A model generated the notes under the pieces. The model made no database searches. It saw only the letters and a list, made by a program, of their open reading frames with translations, and was not told where the DNA came from. 31,564 nucleotides of DNA from a virus. Lineage: Duplodnaviria; Heunggongvirae; Uroviricota; Caudoviricetes. Numbering within the stretch: the stretch's first letter is position 1; each line of letters begins with the position of its first letter. The stretch lies in IMG/VR virus record IMGVR_UViG_2802429242_000004; one strand, written 5' to 3'. Shown here one piece after another: positions 3,312 to 29,929 of the stretch. Made by a program: the position numbers and the translations under genes.

Positions 3312-3583
3312 GTATTCGTATCGAAATTGGCGAACGTTATGTCGTTACCAGTGACAGCTTTCAGTTTATTCTCCACGAGAAAAAGAGAGCGGAAAGCGGT
3401 AAAAACGCCGGTCAGGAATGGCTGTCGGTGGTTGGTTATTATCCGAAATTAAGCCAGCTCGTTTCCGGCCTGATGCATCACGATATTCTGACCGGAAGCG
3501 CAAAGTCTTTTGCTGATTTAAACGCGCAGGTTGAGCAACTCAGCAAGCGTTGTTCAGAGGCTTTTGGCTCATATGGCCGTTAA
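3308..3583 (+). CDS. Early protein (P2 orf83 position)
   Basis: 91-aa ORF, start overlaps upstream stop and 3' end overlaps the start of A. Confidence 0.6.
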   Translation: MSIRIEIGERYVVTSDSFQFILHEKKRAESGKNAGQEWLSVVGYYPKLSQLVSGLMHHDILTGSAKSFADLNAQVEQLSKRCSEAFGSYGR

Positions 3584-5846
3584 AGCCTCCGGGCGTTTTG
3601 TCCCTCCGTCAGCATTTGCCGCAGACACCGGTAAGACGTTTACCGGTGCTTATGCATGGAACGCGCCACGCGAGGCTGTCGGGCGCGAAAGACCCCTTAC
3701 ACGTGACGAGATGCGTCAGGTGCAAGGTGTTTTATCCACGATTAACCGCCTGCCTTACTTTTTGCGCTCGCTGTTTACGTCACGCTATGACTACATCCGG
3801 CGCAATAAAAGCCCGGTGCACGGGTTTTATTTCCTCACATCCACTTTTCAGCGTCGTTTATGGCCGCGCATTGAGCGTGTGAATCAGCGCCATGAAATGA
3901 ACACCGACGCGTCGATGCTGTTTCTGGCTGAGCGTGACCACTATGCGCGCCTGCCGGGGATGAATGACAAGGAGCTGAAAAAGTTTGCCGCCCGTATCTC
4001 ATCGCAGCTTTTCATGATGTATGAGGAACTCTGCGATGCATGGGTTGATGCACATGGCGAGAAAGAATCGCTGTTTACGGATGAGGCGCAGGCGCATCTG
4101 TATGGTCATGTTGCTGGCGCTGCACGTGCTTTCAATATTTCCCCGCTCTACTGGAAAAAATACCGTAAAGGACAGATGACCACGAGGCAGGCATATTCTG
4201 CCATTGCCCGCCTGTTTAACGATGAGTGGTGGACTCATCAGCTTAAAGGCCAGCGTATGCGCTGGCATGAGGCGTTACTGATTGCTGTCGGGGAGGTCAA
4301 TAAAGACCGTTCTCCTTATGCCAGTAAACATGCCATTCGTGATGTGCGTGCGCGCCGCCAGGCAAATCTGGAATTTCTTAAATCGTGTGACCTTGAAAAC
4401 AAGGAAACCGGCGAGCGCATCGACCTTATCAGTAAGGTGATGGGCAGTATTTCTAATCCAGAAATTCGCCGGATGGAGCTGATGAACACCATCGCCGGTA
4501 TTGAGCGTTACGCCGCCGCAGAGGGTGATGTGGGGATGTTTATCACGCTGACCGCGCCGTCAAAGTATCACCCGACACGTCAGGTCAGAAAAGGCGAAAG
4601 TAAAACCGTCCAGCTAAATCACGGCTGGAACGATGAGGCATTTAATCCAAAGGATGCGCAGCGTTATCTCTGCCGTATCTGGAGCCTGATGCGCACGGCA
4701 TTCAAGGATAATGATTTACAGGCCTACGGTTTGCGTGTTGTTGAACCACACCACGACGGAACGCCGCACTGGCATATGATGCTTTTTTGTAATCCACGCC
4801 AGCGTAACCAGATTATTGAAATCATGCGTCGCTATGCGCTCAAAGAGGATGGCGACGAAAGAGGAGCCGCGCGAAACCGTTTTCAGGCAAAACATCTTAA
4901 CCGGGGCGGTGCTGCGGGGTATATCGCAAAATACATCTCAAAAAACATCGATGGCTATGCACTGGATGGTCAGCTCGATAATGATACCGGCAGGCCGCTG
5001 AAAGATACTGCTGCGGCTGTTACCGCATGGGCGTCAACGTGGCGAATTCCGCAATTTAAAACGATTGGCCTGCCGACAATGGGGGCTTACCGTGAACTAC
5101 GCAAATTGCCTCGCGGCGTCAGTATTGCTGATGAGTTTGACGAACGCGTCGAGGCTGCTCGCGCTGCCGCAGACAGTGGTGATTTTGCGTTGTATATCAG
5201 CGCGCAGGGTGGGGCAAATGTCCCGCGCGATTGTCAGACTGTCAGGGTTGCCCGTAGCCCGTCGGATGACGTTAACGAGTACGAGGAAGAAGTCGAGAGA
5301 GTGGTCGGCATTTACGCGCCGCATCTCGGCGCGCGTCATATTCATATCACCAGAACGACGGACTGGCGCATTGTGCCGAAAGTTCCGGTCGTTGAGCCTT
5401 TGACTTTAAAAAGCGGCATCGCCGCGCCTCGGAGTCCTGTCAATAACTGTGGAAAGCTCACCAGTGGTGATACTTCGTTACCGGCTCCCACACCTTCTGA
5501 GCACGTCGCAGCAGTGCTTAATCTGGTTGATGACGGTGTTATCGAATGGAATGACCCGGAGGTCGTGAGGGCGCTCAGGGGCGCATTAAAACACGGACGC
5601 ACCGCAAAGATTTCTGCCGTCTGTTGGTTGAATAATTCGAGATTTTTGGACATGCATAGTTCCCTTTCATCAATTAAAGACCCTTATGCCGACTGGGCAA
5701 AGAGGCTAACTGTAATGGCCTCAAATAACGACCTGAGCTCACGCGAGGTGGACAGTTACACTGAAAAAATGGTTGAACAAGCCAGTAAAGATGAGCTTAT
5801 GGTCGTTATAAAATACCTGTTAAATCACATCAGAATGAGTAAATAA
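3573..5846 (+). CDS. A: Rolling-circle replication initiator A (HUH endonuclease)
   Basis: Large ORF; start trimmed to MAVKASGRF at 3573; HUH motif TPHWHMMLF and tyrosine motif GYIAKYISKN. Confidence 0.92.
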   Translation: MAVKASGRFVPPSAFAADTGKTFTGAYAWNAPREAVGRERPLTRDEMRQVQGVLSTINRLPYFLRSLFTSRYDYIRRNKSPVHGFYFLTSTFQRRLWPRIERVNQRHEMNTDASMLFLAERDHYARLPGMNDKELKKFAARISSQLFMMYEELCDAWVDAHGEKESLFTDEAQAHLYGHVAGAARAFNISPLYWKKYRKGQMTTRQAYSAIARLFNDEWWTHQLKGQRMRWHEALLIAVGEVNKDRSPYASKHAIRDVRARRQANLEFLKSCDLENKETGERIDLISKVMGSISNPEIRRMELMNTIAGIERYAAAEGDVGMFITLTAPSKYHPTRQVRKGESKTVQLNHGWNDEAFNPKDAQRYLCRIWSLMRTAFKDNDLQAYGLRVVEPHHDGTPHWHMMLFCNPRQRNQIIEIMRRYALKEDGDERGAARNRFQAKHLNRGGAAGYIAKYISKNIDGYALDGQLDNDTGRPLKDTAAAVTAWASTWRIPQFKTIGLPTMGAYRELRKLPRGVSIADEFDERVEAARAAADSGDFALYISAQGGANVPRDCQTVRVARSPSDDVNEYEEEVERVVGIYAPHLGARHIHITRTTDWRIVPKVPVVEPLTLKSGIAAPRSPVNNCGKLTSGDTSLPAPTPSEHVAAVLNLVDDGVIEWNDPEVVRALRGALKHGRTAKISAVCWLNNSRFLDMHSSLSSIKDPYADWAKRLTVMASNNDLSSREVDSYTEKMVEQASKDELMVVIKYLLNHIRMSK

Positions 5847-5985
5847 AATGATCTATATCAAGATGTTATCTCACATTTATGAAAGTCCGTGGACAACGAT
5901 TTTTCTGCTAATTGTTGTCAGTACGTGCCTCAACAGTGTGATTGGTGCATTGCGCGGCCAGTGACAACTATAAAAATTGATCAGA

Positions 5986-6012
5986 ACCGGCACCATGAAT
6001 GCCGGTTTTTTT
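5986..6012 (+). terminator. Rho-independent terminator downstream of A
   Basis: Stem accggca (5986-5992) / tgccggt (6000-6006) with 7-nt loop, followed by a T7 run. Confidence 0.6.
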
Positions 6013-6157
6013 GTGCTTTTTCTGTGATATCCCCGTTTTTATCTGTGCATGGTTTTGCATGTGCCGGAGTTACATGTTCTGGCTGTGCGTCCGCCAGGAC
6101 TGGCGTGGCTCAAAAGCGGTATTGCAACTGCATTAAAACCGCCCCATGAAGCGGGCG

Positions 6158-6176
6158 GGCGAGGCGGGGAAAGCAC
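6158..6176. other. cos: cos cohesive-end 19-mer (ggcgaggcggggaaagcac)
   Basis: Exact match to the P2/P4 cohesive-end sequence as I recall it; lies between A and Q as expected for a P2-like genome. Confidence 0.55.
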
Positions 6177-6212
6177 CGCGCGTAAGATAAACAGAAGAGC
6201 GAAGGATTATGG

Positions 6213-6241
6213 TTGAGTATTTGTGTTTTTGTACATATGAT
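6213..6241 (+). promoter_or_regulatory. Predicted sigma70 promoter for the cargo operon
   Basis: -35 ttgagt (6213-6218), 17-bp spacer, -10 tatgat (6236-6241); RBS aaaggag before the ATG at 6283. Confidence 0.4.
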
Positions 6242-6282
6242 AAAAAGGTGTTTACGCTTAAAAACACATCAAAGGAGATGAT

Positions 6283-7584
6283 ATGGAAAATATAAAGATT
6301 GATAAGTTTCTCACTATTCAAAAAGTTGATATTCCTCTTAAGAAAGTGAATATATTTATTGGGCCTCAGGCACAGGGGAAAAGTGTCATTGCAAAGCTAA
6401 TAAAATATTTTAAAGATTACCCTATGGATATACTACGAGCTTCAACAGAGGGTAAAACTAAAAGAGATATATTGAAGGAGCAAAAGAATAAGTTTAGTAA
6501 AATTTTCCCTCAGCAGTATTGGGCTGATGATGAGTTTTTTATTGAGTATAGTAATAAGCACTATTGGGTGCGGATTACTAATCGAAAAGATAGCAAAGGG
6601 TCATTGAAAATAACCCTTTCTGAGAATTTAACGAAGACGATTGCTAAACTTCGTTTGATTGTACGAAAGGATTTAGATGAAAATATTGAGAATTCACTTG
6701 CAGAAAGCGTTACGAGAAGACGTAAACGCGGAATTGAACATGAATTGCGAGTATGTCTTTCTCTAGGATTGTTTTCAGAACCAGAAACAAAGCTTGAAAG
6801 TGTTTTTTATATCCCCGCAGGGCGCTCTTTTTTTGCTAACTTGCAAAAAAATGTGTTTTCATTTTTATCCAGTAGTATAGAAATTGACTACTTTTTGACA
6901 GAGTTTGGTTCTCTGTATGAACAAACAAAAAAATTATTTAGCCAAGATTACATGATTAGGATGCTTAGGGGGGCTGTGCCTCAACATGTTAATAAGCTTG
7001 TGGAGGAGTTGATTTGCGGAAAATATATAACAGAAAAGGGTGAGGATTTTATTCGTCATGCTGCTAAAAAGACGAATCTTAACAACTCGAGCTCAGGGCA
7101 GCAAGAAGCGTTACCAATGGCTTTAATGTTATCCTCATGGCCGTATTTACAGTCTATGACTAGTAAGAGTTTTATTATTGAGGAGCCGGAGGCTCATCTG
7201 TTTCCTTCTGCCCAAGCAAAAGTTGTATCTTTAATAGCCTCAGCGTATAACCAAGCAGAAAGCTATTGTAGCTATACAATAACAACACATAGCCCATATA
7301 TTCTAAGTGCCTTCAATAATTTGATTCAAGCAGGTAATGCATTGAAGTGTATTAAGGGCAAGAATAATGCCGATATCGAACGCTTATATAAGCTTGTTCC
7401 AGAGTCTCAAATTATTGATTTTGATGATGTGACAGCTTATATGGTTAATGCTGGGAAAGTGACGGAAATACTGGATTCCGAACTAAATATATTAGATGCG
7501 AATGAAATAGATAGGATTTCCTCTATTTTTTCAGAGACTTTTGATGCATTGATTGATATCGAATATTCGGCTACTGTGAATTAG
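6283..7584 (+). CDS. ABC-type (AAA_21/OLD-like) ATPase without a nuclease domain; candidate defence component
   Basis: 433 aa; Walker A GPQAQGKS (K33), ABC signature-like SSGQQEAL, Walker B FIIEEPE, H-loop TTHS; region is strongly AT-rich compared with the flanking phage genes. Confidence 0.75.
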   Translation: MENIKIDKFLTIQKVDIPLKKVNIFIGPQAQGKSVIAKLIKYFKDYPMDILRASTEGKTKRDILKEQKNKFSKIFPQQYWADDEFFIEYSNKHYWVRITNRKDSKGSLKITLSENLTKTIAKLRLIVRKDLDENIENSLAESVTRRRKRGIEHELRVCLSLGLFSEPETKLESVFYIPAGRSFFANLQKNVFSFLSSSIEIDYFLTEFGSLYEQTKKLFSQDYMIRMLRGAVPQHVNKLVEELICGKYITEKGEDFIRHAAKKTNLNNSSSGQQEALPMALMLSSWPYLQSMTSKSFIIEEPEAHLFPSAQAKVVSLIASAYNQAESYCSYTITTHSPYILSAFNNLIQAGNALKCIKGKNNADIERLYKLVPESQIIDFDDVTAYMVNAGKVTEILDSELNILDANEIDRISSIFSETFDALIDIEYSATVN

Positions 7585-7592
7585 GTGATTGA

Positions 7593-8030
7593 ATGTGTAA
7601 AAATTGCAAAGGAAAAACAAAAAATAAAATCATTGTGCTATCTGATAAAGGAACGTCAACGCAATTGTCAGTCATAAATGATAATGAGTTGGAGGTTGAG
7701 CATAAGTTAATAGATGGTTGCGCTATTGTTGTTGGGGAGCGGTGTGATCATTATTTGAAGATTTATAACAATCAGGATGTTTCACATCTTTTTGTTGAAC
7801 TTAAAGGAAGTGATGTTGAAAAAGCTGTTAAACAGATAGTGACAACTTTAAAGTCAGGTGTGATTAATGTAGGTGCTAAAGAAAAAAAACATGGTGCTAT
7901 TGTTAGCACTAGGAATCCGCTAAACTCAACAGAAACCAATAAGTTAAAGAAGAAAATTCTTTTGAGTGACGGAGTGAATTTGCATTTCTATAAAATGAAG
8001 GCGCAGCAAAAAATAACTTCTTTTACATGA
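7593..8030 (+). CDS. Small protein with PD-(D/E)xK-like motif; candidate nuclease effector
   Basis: 145 aa; 8 bp after the ATPase stop with its own RBS aggtga; N-terminal CxxC, then D41/D52 ... E69-L-K71 (HLFVELKGSD); lysine-rich C-terminus. Confidence 0.5.
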   Translation: MCKNCKGKTKNKIIVLSDKGTSTQLSVINDNELEVEHKLIDGCAIVVGERCDHYLKIYNNQDVSHLFVELKGSDVEKAVKQIVTTLKSGVINVGAKEKKHGAIVSTRNPLNSTETNKLKKKILLSDGVNLHFYKMKAQQKITSFT

Positions 8031-8043
8031 AGTGTTCTCTTGT

Positions 8044-8067
8044 ACAGGCATGCATTTGCATGCCTGT
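8044..8067. terminator. Hairpin between the convergent cargo operon and Q (probable bidirectional terminator)
   Basis: Perfect 10-bp stem acaggcatgc / gcatgcctgt with 4-nt loop, T-rich sequence after it. Confidence 0.5.
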
Positions 8068-8133
8068 CGTGTAATCTTTTACACTATATTTGTGTTGGTT
8101 CTAATCTTGTTATGTGTTTGTTTCGGTGATGGA

Positions 8134-9153
8134 TCATAATGAATAAGTTCGAAAGCGAAATACATCTTCGCCAACCCAACAGTTAATTTCTTTACATCGC
8201 TCTTGGAGGAACGTTAGCTCGTTGCGTACAAAGACTTGTGCTGCTTTTGTTACATCTCCAAATCCTCCTGTGTTGTTGGGCATCATTCCTATCATTTGGG
8301 GAGGCACGCGATGAGCACTCATTAGATCTTCAGCACTTGCTTTTTTGATATTAAAAAAATCGTCCTTCGTTGCCACTTCACTGAGCGGGATAATTTTAAT
8401 GCCGTCGGCTTTCCCCTGCGGGGCATAGAGAAACAGATTTTTAAAGTTATTGCGGCCTTTCGACTTAACCATGTTTTCGCGAAGCATTTCGATATCGTTG
8501 CGATCCTGCACGGCATCGGTGACGTACATGATGTATCCGGCATGTGCGCCATTTTCGTAATACTTGCGGCGGAACAGCGTGGCTGATTCATTCAGCCAGG
8601 CAGAGTTAAGGGCGCTGAGATACTCCGGCAGGCCGTACAGCTCCTGATTAATATCCGGCTCCAGCAGGTGAAACACGGAGCCGGGTGCGAAGGCTGTCGG
8701 CTCGTTGAAGGACGGCACCCACCAGTAAACATCCTCTTCCACACCACGGCGGGTATATTTTGCCGGTGAGGTTTCCAGTCTGATGACCTTACCGGTGGTG
8801 CTGTAGCGCTTTTCCAGAAACGCATTACCGAACACCAGAAAATCCAGCACAAAGCGACTGAAATCCTGCTGGGAAAGCCACGGGTGCGGGATAAACGTTG
8901 AGGCCAGAATATTACGTTTGACGTAAATCGGTGAGCTGTGATGCACGGCAGCACGCAGGCTTTTTGCCAGACCGGTAAAGCTGACCGGTGGCTCATACCA
9001 TCTGCCGTTACTGATGCACTCGACGTAATCCAGAATATCACGGCGGTCGAGTACCGGCACCGGCTCACCAAAGGTGAATGCCTCCATTTTCGGGGCGCTG
9101 GCAGTCATTGTTTTCACCGCTGGCTGCGGTGTTTTCCCTTTTTTCTTACTCAT
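8134..9153 (-). CDS. Q: Portal protein
   Basis: 339-aa ORF, P2 Q position; start overlaps the stop of P by 1 nt. Confidence 0.9.
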   Translation of the reverse strand: MSKKKGKTPQPAVKTMTASAPKMEAFTFGEPVPVLDRRDILDYVECISNGRWYEPPVSFTGLAKSLRAAVHHSSPIYVKRNILASTFIPHPWLSQQDFSRFVLDFLVFGNAFLEKRYSTTGKVIRLETSPAKYTRRGVEEDVYWWVPSFNEPTAFAPGSVFHLLEPDINQELYGLPEYLSALNSAWLNESATLFRRKYYENGAHAGYIMYVTDAVQDRNDIEMLRENMVKSKGRNNFKNLFLYAPQGKADGIKIIPLSEVATKDDFFNIKKASAEDLMSAHRVPPQMIGMMPNNTGGFGDVTKAAQVFVRNELTFLQERCKEINCWVGEDVFRFRTYSL

Positions 9154-21080: not shown

Positions 21081-21524
21081 ATGAATAAAGTTAAAAGTGT
21101 TTACAGCCCGTCCGAAAATGCAATCTACAACGCAGCGCTATATGAAAGTTATATCAAGGAGGGGACATGGCCGCAGGATGGTATTGAAATCAGCGATGAG
21201 GATGCTGTCAGATTTAATGGGGGAAATAAGCCAACAGGAAAAATGCTGGGAATGGTTTCAGGGACCCTTGCATGGGTTGATGAGCCGCCGCTTTCACCAG
21301 AACAGAAAATATCAGATGCAGAAAACATGAAAGCCACATTTCGTGCAAAAGCTGACAGTGAAATATCCTGGCGTCAGGATGCTGTTGATGCTGGTATCGC
21401 AACTGATGAAGAAACTTCAACTCTCACCCAATGGAAGAAATACCGTGTGCTGCTGATGCGTGTTGATACATCAACAGCCCCCGATATTGAATGGCCTACA
21501 CCTCCGGCAGTTCAGGCCAGATGA
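21081..21524 (+). CDS. G: Tail fibre assembly chaperone G (for the current H C-terminus)
   Basis: 147 aa; C-terminal motif TSTAPDIEWP typical of tail-fibre assembly proteins. Confidence 0.82.
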   Translation: MNKVKSVYSPSENAIYNAALYESYIKEGTWPQDGIEISDEDAVRFNGGNKPTGKMLGMVSGTLAWVDEPPLSPEQKISDAENMKATFRAKADSEISWRQDAVDAGIATDEETSTLTQWKKYRVLLMRVDTSTAPDIEWPTPPAVQAR

Positions 21525-22098
21525 CATCCGGCGCGGTGCTGGTATCTGTTGCCGTCACCGCGTCAATGTAATCCAGCACGGCGTTAAGGCGGGTGGTTTC
21601 TGCCTGCGTCAGCCTCCGCCCGGCCTGTAATTTCAGCTGAATCAGACTGATGGAAGCCATTGCAGCATCAATCAGTGACTGGCGCTGTGCTTCTGCCGCG
21701 TCTACTGCGGCGCAATGCTGTGCCTCAGTATCGGTCACCCATTTCTCACCATCCCATTTATCGTATGGCGTTAACGGGGCGATAGTGGTTGTATTTTCGG
21801 GGTAATCACCCGGAGTTGTGATTTCTTTGGCGTCTCCCGTTTCGGTGTTATAGACGATTTCTCCGCGATGGTCTGGCACATATTCCCATGAGTTTAAATC
21901 CGCAGAGCGGCAGATGGCATAACCAGCTTTATATGTTCCTGGTGCATCTAAACAGGAACATGCCGGAATACCGACACCAACAGCAAGATATTCAGTTGAT
22001 GTGGAAATATATTCTCGTGTTTCACCATTATAATTATAGACAGTAATATCCCCCGCCTTCGTGGCAATAAGCTCGCTATTTAATACGGCATTATCCAT
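21496..22098 (-). CDS. Alternative tail fibre assembly chaperone (G')
   Basis: 200 aa on the opposite strand inside the invertible segment; same C-terminal motif (TSTAPDVIWPELP); its 3' end overlaps G convergently. Confidence 0.8.
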   Translation of the reverse strand: MDNAVLNSELIATKAGDITVYNYNGETREYISTSTEYLAVGVGIPACSCLDAPGTYKAGYAICRSADLNSWEYVPDHRGEIVYNTETGDAKEITTPGDYPENTTTIAPLTPYDKWDGEKWVTDTEAQHCAAVDAAEAQRQSLIDAAMASISLIQLKLQAGRRLTQAETTRLNAVLDYIDAVTATDTSTAPDVIWPELPEV

Positions 22099-22606
22099 TA
22101 TGCAGCCCTCACGATGTAATTAAATGAAAGGTTACGAGGGCGCATTGATATCCATGCCCCGGTAAAATTATCCTCCGCTGTCCTTTGAGTACCCGTTATG
22201 GAGTTATCTGCTGATGCAGGAACATAATCGCTATTATTTCCTGCTTTAGGATTAGCTGGGTTTCCAACAGTTATAACAGAATCAGCAGTAGCAAAAGCGA
22301 TACCTACTTTGACATTAGTATTCAGATCGTAACCGTAATAATCCTGCAAAGCTGTACGAATAAATGTTGCAGCCTGACCACTTAGCAATGAACGCCCCGT
22401 ATCAATCCCTCTAGAATCATCCCAGCCACGAATAAACTCACCACGTAAATCAGGCAATTTATTTGTCGGGTAAGCCTTTGCCAGTTCCGGGTATTCTTCA
22501 GCAGAAAAAGCTGCTCCGTTGCATTTCAGCCAGCCTGTTGGAGGTGTCTCTGAAGGCCACGGAACAGGTGCACCAACAGGTAATGCTGAACCTTCTCCCA
22601 AACCAA
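22098..22606 (-). CDS. Alternative (silent) tail fibre C-terminal segment H'
   Basis: Minus-strand reading frame continuous from the right crossover site (encodes ..LGLGEGSALPVGAPVPWP..); no own promoter or N-terminus, so expressed only after inversion. Confidence 0.75.
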
Positions 22607-22618
22607 CGTTTATGAAAA
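22593..22618. repeat. Right invertase crossover site (hix/gix-like)
   Basis: ttctcccaaacc-aa-cgtttatgaaaa; half-site TTCTCCCAAACC resembles the Gin/Hin half-site pattern (recalled), central AA. Confidence 0.65.
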
Positions 22619-22673
22619 TGCAGAGATAATGGCTAACTGGCATCATCCCCGGTTTTTATTCAGGGGATTGATC

Positions 22674-23267
22674 ATGCTTATTGGCTATATACGCGTGTCA
22701 ACAAATGACCAGAACACGGAATTGCAGCGTAACGCGCTGGAGTGCGCAGGATGCGAGCGGATTTTTGAGGATAAAATCAGTGGCACGAAGTCCGACCGAC
22801 CGGGACTGAAAAAACTGCTCAGAACATTATCAGCAGGTGACACTCTGGTAGTCTGGAAGCTGGACCGGCTGGGGCGTAGTATGCGGCATCTGGTCATTCT
22901 GGTTGAGGAGCTGCGCGAACGCGGCGTTAATTTTCGCAGCCTGACAGATGCTATTGATACCAGCACGCCGATGGGGCGTTTTTTCTTTCATGTGATGGGT
23001 GCCCTGGCTGAAATGGAGCGAGAACTCATTGTCGAGCGGACACGCGCCGGACTGGAAGCGGCCAGAGCCAAAGGGCGTATTGGTGGCAGACGTCCGAAGC
23101 TCACCGCGAGTGAGTGGGAACAGGCAGGACGGTTGCTGGCTGCGGGTGAATCACGTCAACGCGTGGCGCTGATTTTTGATATTGGCCTGTCCACGCTCTA
23201 TAAAAAATTCCCCTCATCAGCGGCAAAGAATAAATTGTGTCATCCCTTAGCCAACCGGGACAAATAG
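22674..23267 (+). CDS. Site-specific DNA invertase, serine recombinase (Hin/Gin/Cin/Pin family)
   Basis: N-terminus MLIGYIRVSTNDQ with the catalytic serine; resolvase/invertase catalytic domain plus C-terminal HTH; immediately next to the right crossover site. Start trimmed from the track's 22629. Confidence 0.9.
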   Translation: MLIGYIRVSTNDQNTELQRNALECAGCERIFEDKISGTKSDRPGLKKLLRTLSAGDTLVVWKLDRLGRSMRHLVILVEELRERGVNFRSLTDAIDTSTPMGRFFFHVMGALAEMERELIVERTRAGLEAARAKGRIGGRRPKLTASEWEQAGRLLAAGESRQRVALIFDIGLSTLYKKFPSSAAKNKLCHPLANRDK

Positions 23268-29629: not shown

Positions 29630-29710
29630 CGTGTTTTATTTATCTGTTTGTTTTATAAGGATAAATTAACTAAAATGGCACCATCAACAAAACCGGAAGA
29701 GGTGCTCGCG

Positions 29711-29929
29711 ATGTTTCATTGTCCTTTATGCCAGCATGCCGCACATGCGCGTACAAGCCGCTATATCACTGACACGACAAAAGAGCGTTATCACCAGTGT
29801 CAGAACGTGAATTGCAGCGCCACGTTCATCACTTATGAGTCTGTACAGCGATACATTGTGAAGCCGGGAGAAGTCCACGCCGTGAGGCCGCACCCGTTGC
29901 CGTCAGGGCAGCAAATTATGTGGATGTAA
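29711..29929 (+). CDS. ogr: Ogr late-gene transcription activator (C4 zinc finger)
   Basis: 72 aa after trimming to MFHCPLCQHAAHAR; CxxC-x22-CxxC zinc finger; matches P2 Ogr as recalled. Confidence 0.9.
   Translation: MFHCPLCQHAAHARTSRYITDTTKERYHQCQNVNCSATFITYESVQRYIVKPGEVHAVRPHPLPSGQQIMWM

Follow-up and report, generated by a model that had tools for sequence, protein, structure and literature searches.

What do two tightly linked genes do beside the cohesive end of a P2-like prophage? The question is raised by the IMG/VR record IMGVR_UViG_2802429242_000004 (Caudoviricetes), a stretch of 31,564 nucleotides, here called the window, which holds a complete P2-like prophage of E. coli. At positions 6283–8030 lies a cassette of two genes, the first coding for a 433-amino-acid (aa) ATPase of the ATP-binding cassette (ABC) type and the second for a 145-aa partner protein. 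From sequence conservation, structure models and analogy, we consider with moderate confidence that the two genes, carried by a prophage, form an anti-phage defence system of the class that combines an ABC ATPase with a trans-acting nuclease (PARIS, Septu, HEC-02/03, Lamassu). A first-pass annotation had proposed an ATPase sensor with a nuclease effector supplied in trans, and by analogy with known systems this remains the best hypothesis.

Organization and pairing of the two genes

As the first-pass annotation had described, the two open reading frames (ORFs) lie on the same strand, 8 nt apart (GTGATTGA), and a Shine-Dalgarno-like site precedes each of them, AAGGAG for the ATPase gene and AGGTGA for the partner gene (Table 1). 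The ORFs are real genes, since homologues range from Enterobacterales to Nostocales. Pairing was checked by running hidden Markov models (HMMs) of both families over every locus, a locus being counted if it contained a family ATPase together with downstream DNA; viral contigs were searched with the ATPase alignment. The partner was found directly downstream of the ATPase, on the same strand and often overlapping it, in 29 of 29 checkable loci, over ATPase identities of 27–100%. The next most distant ATPase, at 25% identity, had no partner. ATPase and partner form an obligate module.

On three viral contigs, contiguous same-strand genes precede distant cassettes of the family (L027 290–3924, L030 287–3924 and L028 116–3919). 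There are either two such genes of about 600 aa or four of 179–489 aa, all without a Pfam match, and they could represent larger operons or neighbouring unknown systems.

The ATPase

A Pfam search of the 433-aa protein returned AAA_15 (8e-21) and AAA_21 (4.5e-9) only and no TOPRIM or HNH domain, which bears out the earlier statement that no nuclease of these types is fused to it. The label "AbiEii type IV TA toxin" (TA, toxin-antitoxin) attached to AAA_21 is an artefact of Pfam naming and not a feature of this protein. Weak matches to RecF/SMC_N profiles were also seen.

The full ABC/OLD-type motif set that had been read from the sequence stands where it was placed: Walker A at G27-P-Q-A-Q-G-K33-S34 (residues 27–34), the signature at S270-S-G-Q-Q274, Walker B with the catalytic glutamate at F297-I-I-E-E-P-E303, and the H-loop at T334-T-H336-S337. 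In an alignment of 42 homologues with identities of 39–79%, the residues G27, Q29, G32, K33, S34, S270–Q274, E300-E-P-E303 and T335-H-S337 were invariant. At the position of the Walker B aspartate, 42 of 42 aligned ATPases have glutamate (IIEEPE; E300–E303, positions 7180–7191), an unusual yet invariant substitution.

The AlphaFold2 (AF2) model of the ATPase (pLDDT, for predicted local distance difference test, 85.5) comprises an ABC head, a two-helix insert at about 114–164 and, at about 350–433, a C-terminal domain that is specific to the family and about 80 residues long. When this model was searched with Foldseek, the closest solved structures were PtuA chains of Septu and of the retron Ec78, Ec83 and Eco7 complexes (E 7e-10 to 1e-7), with Rad50 and SMC heads ranking after them. 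Because the ABC motifs are all invariant and the nearest solved structures are PtuA ATPases, the enzyme is probably active.

The small partner protein

The partner had no match in Pfam, NCBIfam or PHROGs. A word-indexed search recovered 18 relatives only; an exhaustive profile search recovered 2,357 cluster representatives at 50% identity, 1,041 of them with E <= 1e-10. Nearly all of the best 150 listed relatives are 130–170 aa long, and none of these is of fusion-protein length.

Conservation was read from 149 relatives with identities of 22–48%. Invariant residues were D41, C51, E69, K71 and Q81, and at least 90% conservation was found for C5, N29, C43, D52, L70, G72, A78 and P109. The D...E-x-K pattern reported in the first pass is thus a property of the family, and D41/D52, E69-L-K71 and Q81 make up the candidate active site. 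The N-terminal CxxC reported alongside it did not survive the comparison: of its two cysteines C5 alone is conserved, C2 being confined to the enterobacterial clade, so a CxxC zinc finger was rejected as a feature of the family. What the family does share is a near-universal cysteine triad, C5/C43/C51, with no conserved fourth ligand, and this triad could bind a metal or serve as a redox switch. The place of a fourth cysteine may be taken by C2 in enterobacterial members and, in roughly half of the rest, by C101 or C108.

In the AF2 model of the partner (pLDDT 87.6), D52 opens strand 53–59 and E69-L-K71 closes strand 62–70 of a beta-hairpin, and the helix bearing Q81 comes next. A Foldseek search placed Mus81, BamHI, FokI and Cap4 at the top, none of them significant; the only functionally coherent structural neighbours were nucleases. 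The FokI cleavage domain, the nuclease domains of Can2/Card1, CdiA-CT EC869 and the C-terminal domain of NucS share with the partner a D...(D/E)xK motif on a beta-hairpin; identities to such minimal restriction-endonuclease-fold domains are 6–19%, and the partner lacks their usual first helix. Single members of the family matched the PD-(D/E)xK families SduA_C, HSDR_N, RE_TdeIII, DUF2726 and Cas4 weakly, and no significant profile match to any recognised PD-(D/E)xK member family was obtained in Pfam and PDB searches. The earlier suggestion of a minimal PD-(D/E)xK fold is supported to this extent: the motif is conserved and the model is most compatible with this fold, but neither a fold nor a profile match reached significance. 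A minimal PD-(D/E)xK nuclease is the best reading of the partner from sequence and model taken together, with no single line being decisive. A TOPRIM, DUF4276 or RloB identity was rejected, since searches gave no matches and the structural neighbours included no TOPRIM protein.

The same data bear on a defence or abortive-infection pair in which the partner would be no nuclease but a metal-binding adaptor, sensor or regulator built on the cysteine triad, toxicity arising from the ATPase (through ATP depletion or DNA clamping) or from a recruited host factor. The near-invariance of C5/C43/C51 points to a metal site with a structural or regulatory function, model confidence is lowest in the C43–C51 loop (pLDDT 64, residues 41–50), and the nuclease-fold similarity is, as described above, weak. 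However, an invariant D...E-x-K...Q arrangement on a beta-hairpin and helix is the hallmark of PD-(D/E)xK active sites and would not be expected in a pure adaptor, the coherent structural neighbours are all nucleases, and in known ABC-ATPase defence systems the effector is a separate enzyme. We regard a non-nuclease partner as unlikely.

A nuclease of another kind is conceivable as well. PDB sequence searches with three partner profiles (14, 49 and 149 sequences) gave Rai1 as the sole near-threshold match (E 0.11–0.35, not significant); a match to a PPR protein was discarded as chance. In the Rai1 alignment the C-D...VELK...Q block of the partner, with 17 residues between D and E, falls on the catalytic motifs of Rai1, and this spacing is the same as in the DXO/Rai1 motifs. 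By this analogy the partner would found a new and very small cysteine-triad branch of PD-(D/E)xK proteins that acts on RNA 5' ends like DXO/Rai1 and is not a DNase, and the system would be an ABC-ATPase-gated defence based on RNA-end or cap surveillance. PARIS offers a parallel, as it cleaves tRNA and not DNA. We consider this version quite improbable.

Relation to PDC-M29 and to named systems

The first-pass annotation could not place the pair in any family. It was right in that the partner matches no AriB, PtuB or GajB model, but both proteins match the candidate family PDC-M29, and the pair had already been listed: Table S5 of Rousset et al. 2022 (PMC9122126) contains the exact proteins among P2-encoded loci as "AAA_15/AAA_21 + hypothetical", in the pairs WP_023486639 + WP_040030509 and WP_053274948 + WP_000335230. 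The table of tested systems in that paper does not include them.

PDC-M29A was the best of 93 PADLOC matches of the ATPase (E 2e-31, 107.7 bits), and relatives of the ATPase scored similarly against it (1e-25 to 1e-29). The sole PADLOC match of the partner was PDC-M29B (E 2.8e-4, 19.1 bits), residues 23–129 aligning with positions 40–154 of the 164-position model; the same model was matched by 47 of 49 diverse partner relatives, at best with 2.1e-13. Homology of the window partner to PDC-M29B is credible. The protein may fall below PADLOC's own cut-off, so that an automated PADLOC run may miss the cassette. Gene order is the same in both, ABC ATPase and then small partner. PDC-M29 corresponds to cassette CAS_00123 (FAM_00005>>FAM_02872, 110 RefSeq occurrences) in the preprint of Payne et al. 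2024 (10.1101/2024.01.29.577857), where it is one of 145 phage defence candidates (PDCs) drawn from genes lying inside BREX, DISARM or type I restriction-modification loci.

Like Septu (PtuA + PtuB), the window cassette is a two-gene unit of an ATPase and a trans nuclease, the latter being predicted here. PtuB, however, is an HNH nuclease and the window proteins have neither an HNH domain nor a PtuB match, and the ATPase resembles PtuA in sequence at the motif level only (PADLOC PtuA HMMs, 1e-9 to 4e-11; 30.4 bits against the NCBIfam PtuA equivalog, whose cutoff is 500). With PARIS the cassette shares an ATPase of the AAA_15/AAA_21 type and a home in P2/P4 hotspots. The PADLOC AriA profiles matched the window ATPase at 1.7e-25 and 1.7e-11, but these profiles are generic for AAA_15/AAA_21, and AriB is a DUF4435/TOPRIM nuclease of about 35 kDa, whereas the 145-aa partner has no DUF4435/TOPRIM or AriB match. 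OLD and GajA of Gabija carry a fused TOPRIM domain, and their models matched the window ATPase at the ATPase motifs only; GajB is a UvrD-like helicase, whereas the 145-aa neighbour in the window is no helicase and has no GajB match.

Menshen consists of the ParB-DUF262 protein NsnA, the ABC ATPase NsnB and the inPIN nuclease NsnC (PMC12065111). The NsnB model matched the window ATPase at 5.3e-16, but no gene resembling NsnA or NsnC lies between cos and Q. HEC-02, a pair of an ABC ATPase and a NERD-type PD-(D/E)xK nuclease that Payne et al. 2024 (10.1101/2024.01.29.577857) validated, shares the logic of the cassette and its predicted effector superfamily, namely a PD-(D/E)xK protein that is separate from its ABC ATPase. 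HEC-02A was matched by relatives of the window ATPase (1e-11 to 1e-17) and was not among the best 25 of the 93 PADLOC matches of the window ATPase itself. In contrast to the HEC-02 partner, the window partner has no NERD or HEC-02B match, is far smaller and has a conserved cysteine triad. Judged by these comparisons, the cassette is not PARIS, Septu, Gabija, OLD, Menshen or HEC-02, because the defining partner feature of each is missing.

Distribution and genomic contexts

Of 5,426 complete E. coli genomes, 10 carry the cassette. It is absent from P2 itself and, at the DNA level, from 50,697 deposited phage records. Beyond E. coli, loci of the family span Enterobacteria, Pseudomonas, cyanobacteria and several types of prophage. 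Cassettes lie in a lambdoid prophage of Enterobacter and, in a Pseudomonas prophage, next to a CI-like repressor; in P. aeruginosa one adjoins HigBA and a filamentous prophage, in Serratia one forms an isolated islet between housekeeping genes, another stands with a VapC/PIN gene inside a his operon, and in Nostocales one adjoins an HNH gene. The contexts are diverse, as is typical of mobile defence cargo, and the distribution is patchy.

E. coli E24377A carries a decayed P2-like prophage (L001 6012–10078) in which the portal and tape-measure genes are pseudogenes, the latter interrupted by ISEc62 (IS21 family). Both cassette genes are intact there, at 99.1% identity to the window, which suggests that the host retains them. 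Eight synonymous and seven non-synonymous changes separate the two copies, too few to be informative.

Such persistence in a decaying prophage would also suit a toxin-antitoxin-like addiction module that stabilises mobile elements without excluding phages, with the small nuclease as toxin and the ATPase neutralising it. The compactness of the two-gene unit, its frequent gene overlap and its presence on mobile elements and on islets near HigBA and VapC fit this picture. Yet typical antitoxins are far smaller and simpler than this 433-aa ATPase, whose catalytic motifs are fully conserved, and the cassette occupies a slot in which antiviral systems are swapped as cargo. For PARIS, deletion of either gene was non-toxic, excluding toxin-antitoxin logic in that system (PMC9122126). 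An addiction module appears distinctly unlikely to us.

In three unrelated phage types the cassettes lie directly beside portal genes: that of Q in the P2-like window (6283–9153), that of a P22-like element (L026 1471–5705) and that of a Mu-like element with Mu-F/PBECR2 (L023 3989–8856). This recurrence is striking, yet it may mean no more than that a moron slot commonly lies at the border of the packaging module. It could alternatively point to a function for the phage itself, such as an ATPase-nuclease like SbcCD/Rad50-Mre11 for DNA-end processing, recombination or packaging, which would explain the position near cos and portal; the structural likeness of the ATPase to Rad50/SMC heads and its weak RecF/SMC_N matches agree with such a role. 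However, since the cassette is missing from P2, from the deposited phages and from most P2-like prophages, it is dispensable for the phage. Its GC content is foreign, the family also lives outside prophages (the Serratia islet and the his operon), the ATPase has no long coiled coil and the partner is no phosphoesterase of the Mre11 type. We hold a function of the phage's own to be highly improbable.

The general biology of P2-like phages suggests one further role, in counter-defence or competition between elements, for instance against P4-like satellites, with which these phages are in conflict, or against host immune systems; hotspots may carry anti-satellite or anti-defence cargo. Against this, neither protein resembles any known anti-defence protein, both genes match models of a defence-system database (PADLOC), and the family is found in chromosomal islets and in cyanobacteria, where the P2/P4 conflict is absent. 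To this role we grant only the faintest chance.

Position in the prophage and flanking signals

The P2 hotspot is described as a reservoir of antiviral systems in Rousset et al. 2022 (PMC9122126) and in a 2026 preprint. The first-pass annotation had placed the cassette in the P2 cargo slot between genes A and Q. It does lie in a cargo hotspot, but on the cos-to-Q side and not in the classic A-to-cos slot of tin and old, which is empty in this prophage (5846–6176). The cos 19-mer (Table 1) has one exact match in the window, where none is expected by chance, and is identical to the annotated cosL 1–19 of P2 (NC_001895). From cosL to the Q stop codon the distance is 1957 bp in the window as against 167 bp in P2. 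Lying on the Q side of cos, the cassette takes the extreme left end of the packaged genome. GC content is 0.33–0.40 over 6001–8000 compared with about 0.55–0.60 in the phage late genes; this AT-rich segment is, by its composition, foreign to the phage backbone and typical of acquired cargo.

The P2 hotspot consists of two sub-slots that flank cos, 5846–6176 and 6158–8134. In strain 2452 (L002 5877–7047) both are occupied: the one before cos holds a GNAT gene together with two hypotheticals, and the one after cos holds the same cassette. Over the final 350 bp or so of gene A (5500–5846) GC falls to 0.44, and the Phage_GPA domain covers residues 147–476 of the A protein, leaving a C-terminal tail beyond it; the cargo boundary may extend into the 3' end of gene A.

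Five terminator-like sites were found in the region, compared with 1.3 expected. One of them, the hairpin at 5983–6009, would insulate the cassette from early transcription. Downstream of the partner gene a second hairpin, at 8044–8067, went unflagged in the terminator scan because no T-run follows directly. The fold of 8031–8090 has a free energy of -23.5 kcal/mol (z = -6.2 against shuffles), and this hairpin is probably a transcription stop or an insertion-boundary element.

Table 1. Coordinates of the cassette, its flanking signals and the surrounding prophage genes in the window
Feature	Position	Strand	Remarks
Integrase	1–1014	minus	
Replication gene A	3531–5846		Phage_GPA 2e-122
Terminator-like hairpin after replication gene A	5983–6009	+	10-bp stem, then T-run
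P2 cos cohesive-end 19-mer GGCGAGGCGGGGAAAGCAC	6158–6176	+	left boundary of insertion slot
Candidate sigma-70 promoter TTGAGT-17-TATGAT	6213–6241	+	9/12 matches
Shine-Dalgarno-like AAGGAG	6272–6277	+	5 nt upstream of ATPase ATG; read from sequence
Cassette gene A, 433-aa ABC-type (AAA_15/AAA_21) ATPase	6283–7584	+	ATG start
Shine-Dalgarno-like AGGTGA for partner	7583–7588	+	overlaps ATPase stop TAG (7582–7584); read from sequence
Cassette gene B, 145-aa partner, predicted minimal PD-(D/E)xK-like nuclease	7593–8030	+	ATG start
Perfect 10-bp hairpin ACAGGCATGC-ATTT-GCATGCCTGT	8044–8067		between partner gene and convergent portal gene Q
Portal gene Q	8134–9153	minus	convergent with partner gene
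Terminase P, then head, tail and tail-fibre genes	beyond Q, up to ogr		
ogr	29648–29929		

A host gene for peptidase U32 sits at the right edge of the window. Elsewhere in the prophage, downstream of H and G and at the position of the Z/fun cargo locus of P2, a serine invertase gene (Resolvase + HTH_7, 22629–23267) adjoins oppositely oriented tail-collar and tail-fibre-assembly genes (21496–22646, minus). The whole segment (21496–23267) looks like an invertible switch of tail-fibre host range.

Discussion

Several observations weigh against a defence system with a nuclease effector. Sites like the candidate promoter were not more frequent in the region than in shuffled sequences, and the call of a cassette promoter is no better than chance. 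The PDC-M29A match of the ATPase is split into three stretches, of which the best covers residues 298–427, and lies mostly in the C-terminal third of the model. Since PDC-M29 scores were moderate in every lineage tried, the window family is, on sequence grounds, a sister clade of PDC-M29 in a larger superfamily, outside the PDC-M29 core. The PDCs themselves are explicitly described as untested, and PDC-M29 comes with no proposed mechanism, in the source paper (10.1101/2024.01.29.577857); some PADLOC candidates, at least, were inactive when assayed. A literature search found no paper testing the family, and "PDC-M29" and the four WP accessions had no match in main texts. On the side of the partner, the N-terminal part of the model is all-beta, strands replacing the canonical N-terminal helix of the PD-(D/E)xK core, and the conserved cysteine triad has no explained role.

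The pairing of an ABC ATPase with a trans nuclease is an established defence design, HEC-02 being among the examples (10.1101/2024.01.29.577857), and PARIS is the best-understood case in which a nuclease effector is held and released by an ATPase scaffold. If the window cassette works along these lines, it would be expressed in the lysogen from its own signals, with a terminator insulating it from gene A. The ATPase would oligomerise through its helical insert and C-terminal domain and hold the partner inactive, as in the analogous pairs AriA-AriB and PtuA-PtuB. Upon superinfection it might recognise some sign of the phage (one of its proteins, say, or else DNA ends or DNA of unusual structure), and ATP binding or hydrolysis would then release or license the partner. 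The putative nuclease, with D41/D52, E69-x-K71 and Q81 at its active site, would probably have to pair up in order to cut, like the FokI cleavage domain, and cleavage of nucleic acid would stop the phage either directly or by abortive infection.

In summary, the cassette represents a variant, uncharacterised and already flagged computationally, of a familiar design. Conceptually it is an incremental step, as that design is established by PARIS, Septu, HEC-02/03 and Lamassu. If the cassette is active, what is so far a PADLOC candidate and an entry in a supplementary table would become a defined system. The partner, which belongs to no Pfam family, is among the smallest stand-alone nuclease-like partners known. 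At about 1.8 kb and two proteins, the cassette is a compact model for the gating of a trans-acting nuclease by an ABC ATPase, and, again if active, it would add to the ABC-ATPase immune class a widespread family that counts 2,357 partner representatives and reaches from Enterobacteria and Pseudomonas to cyanobacteria.

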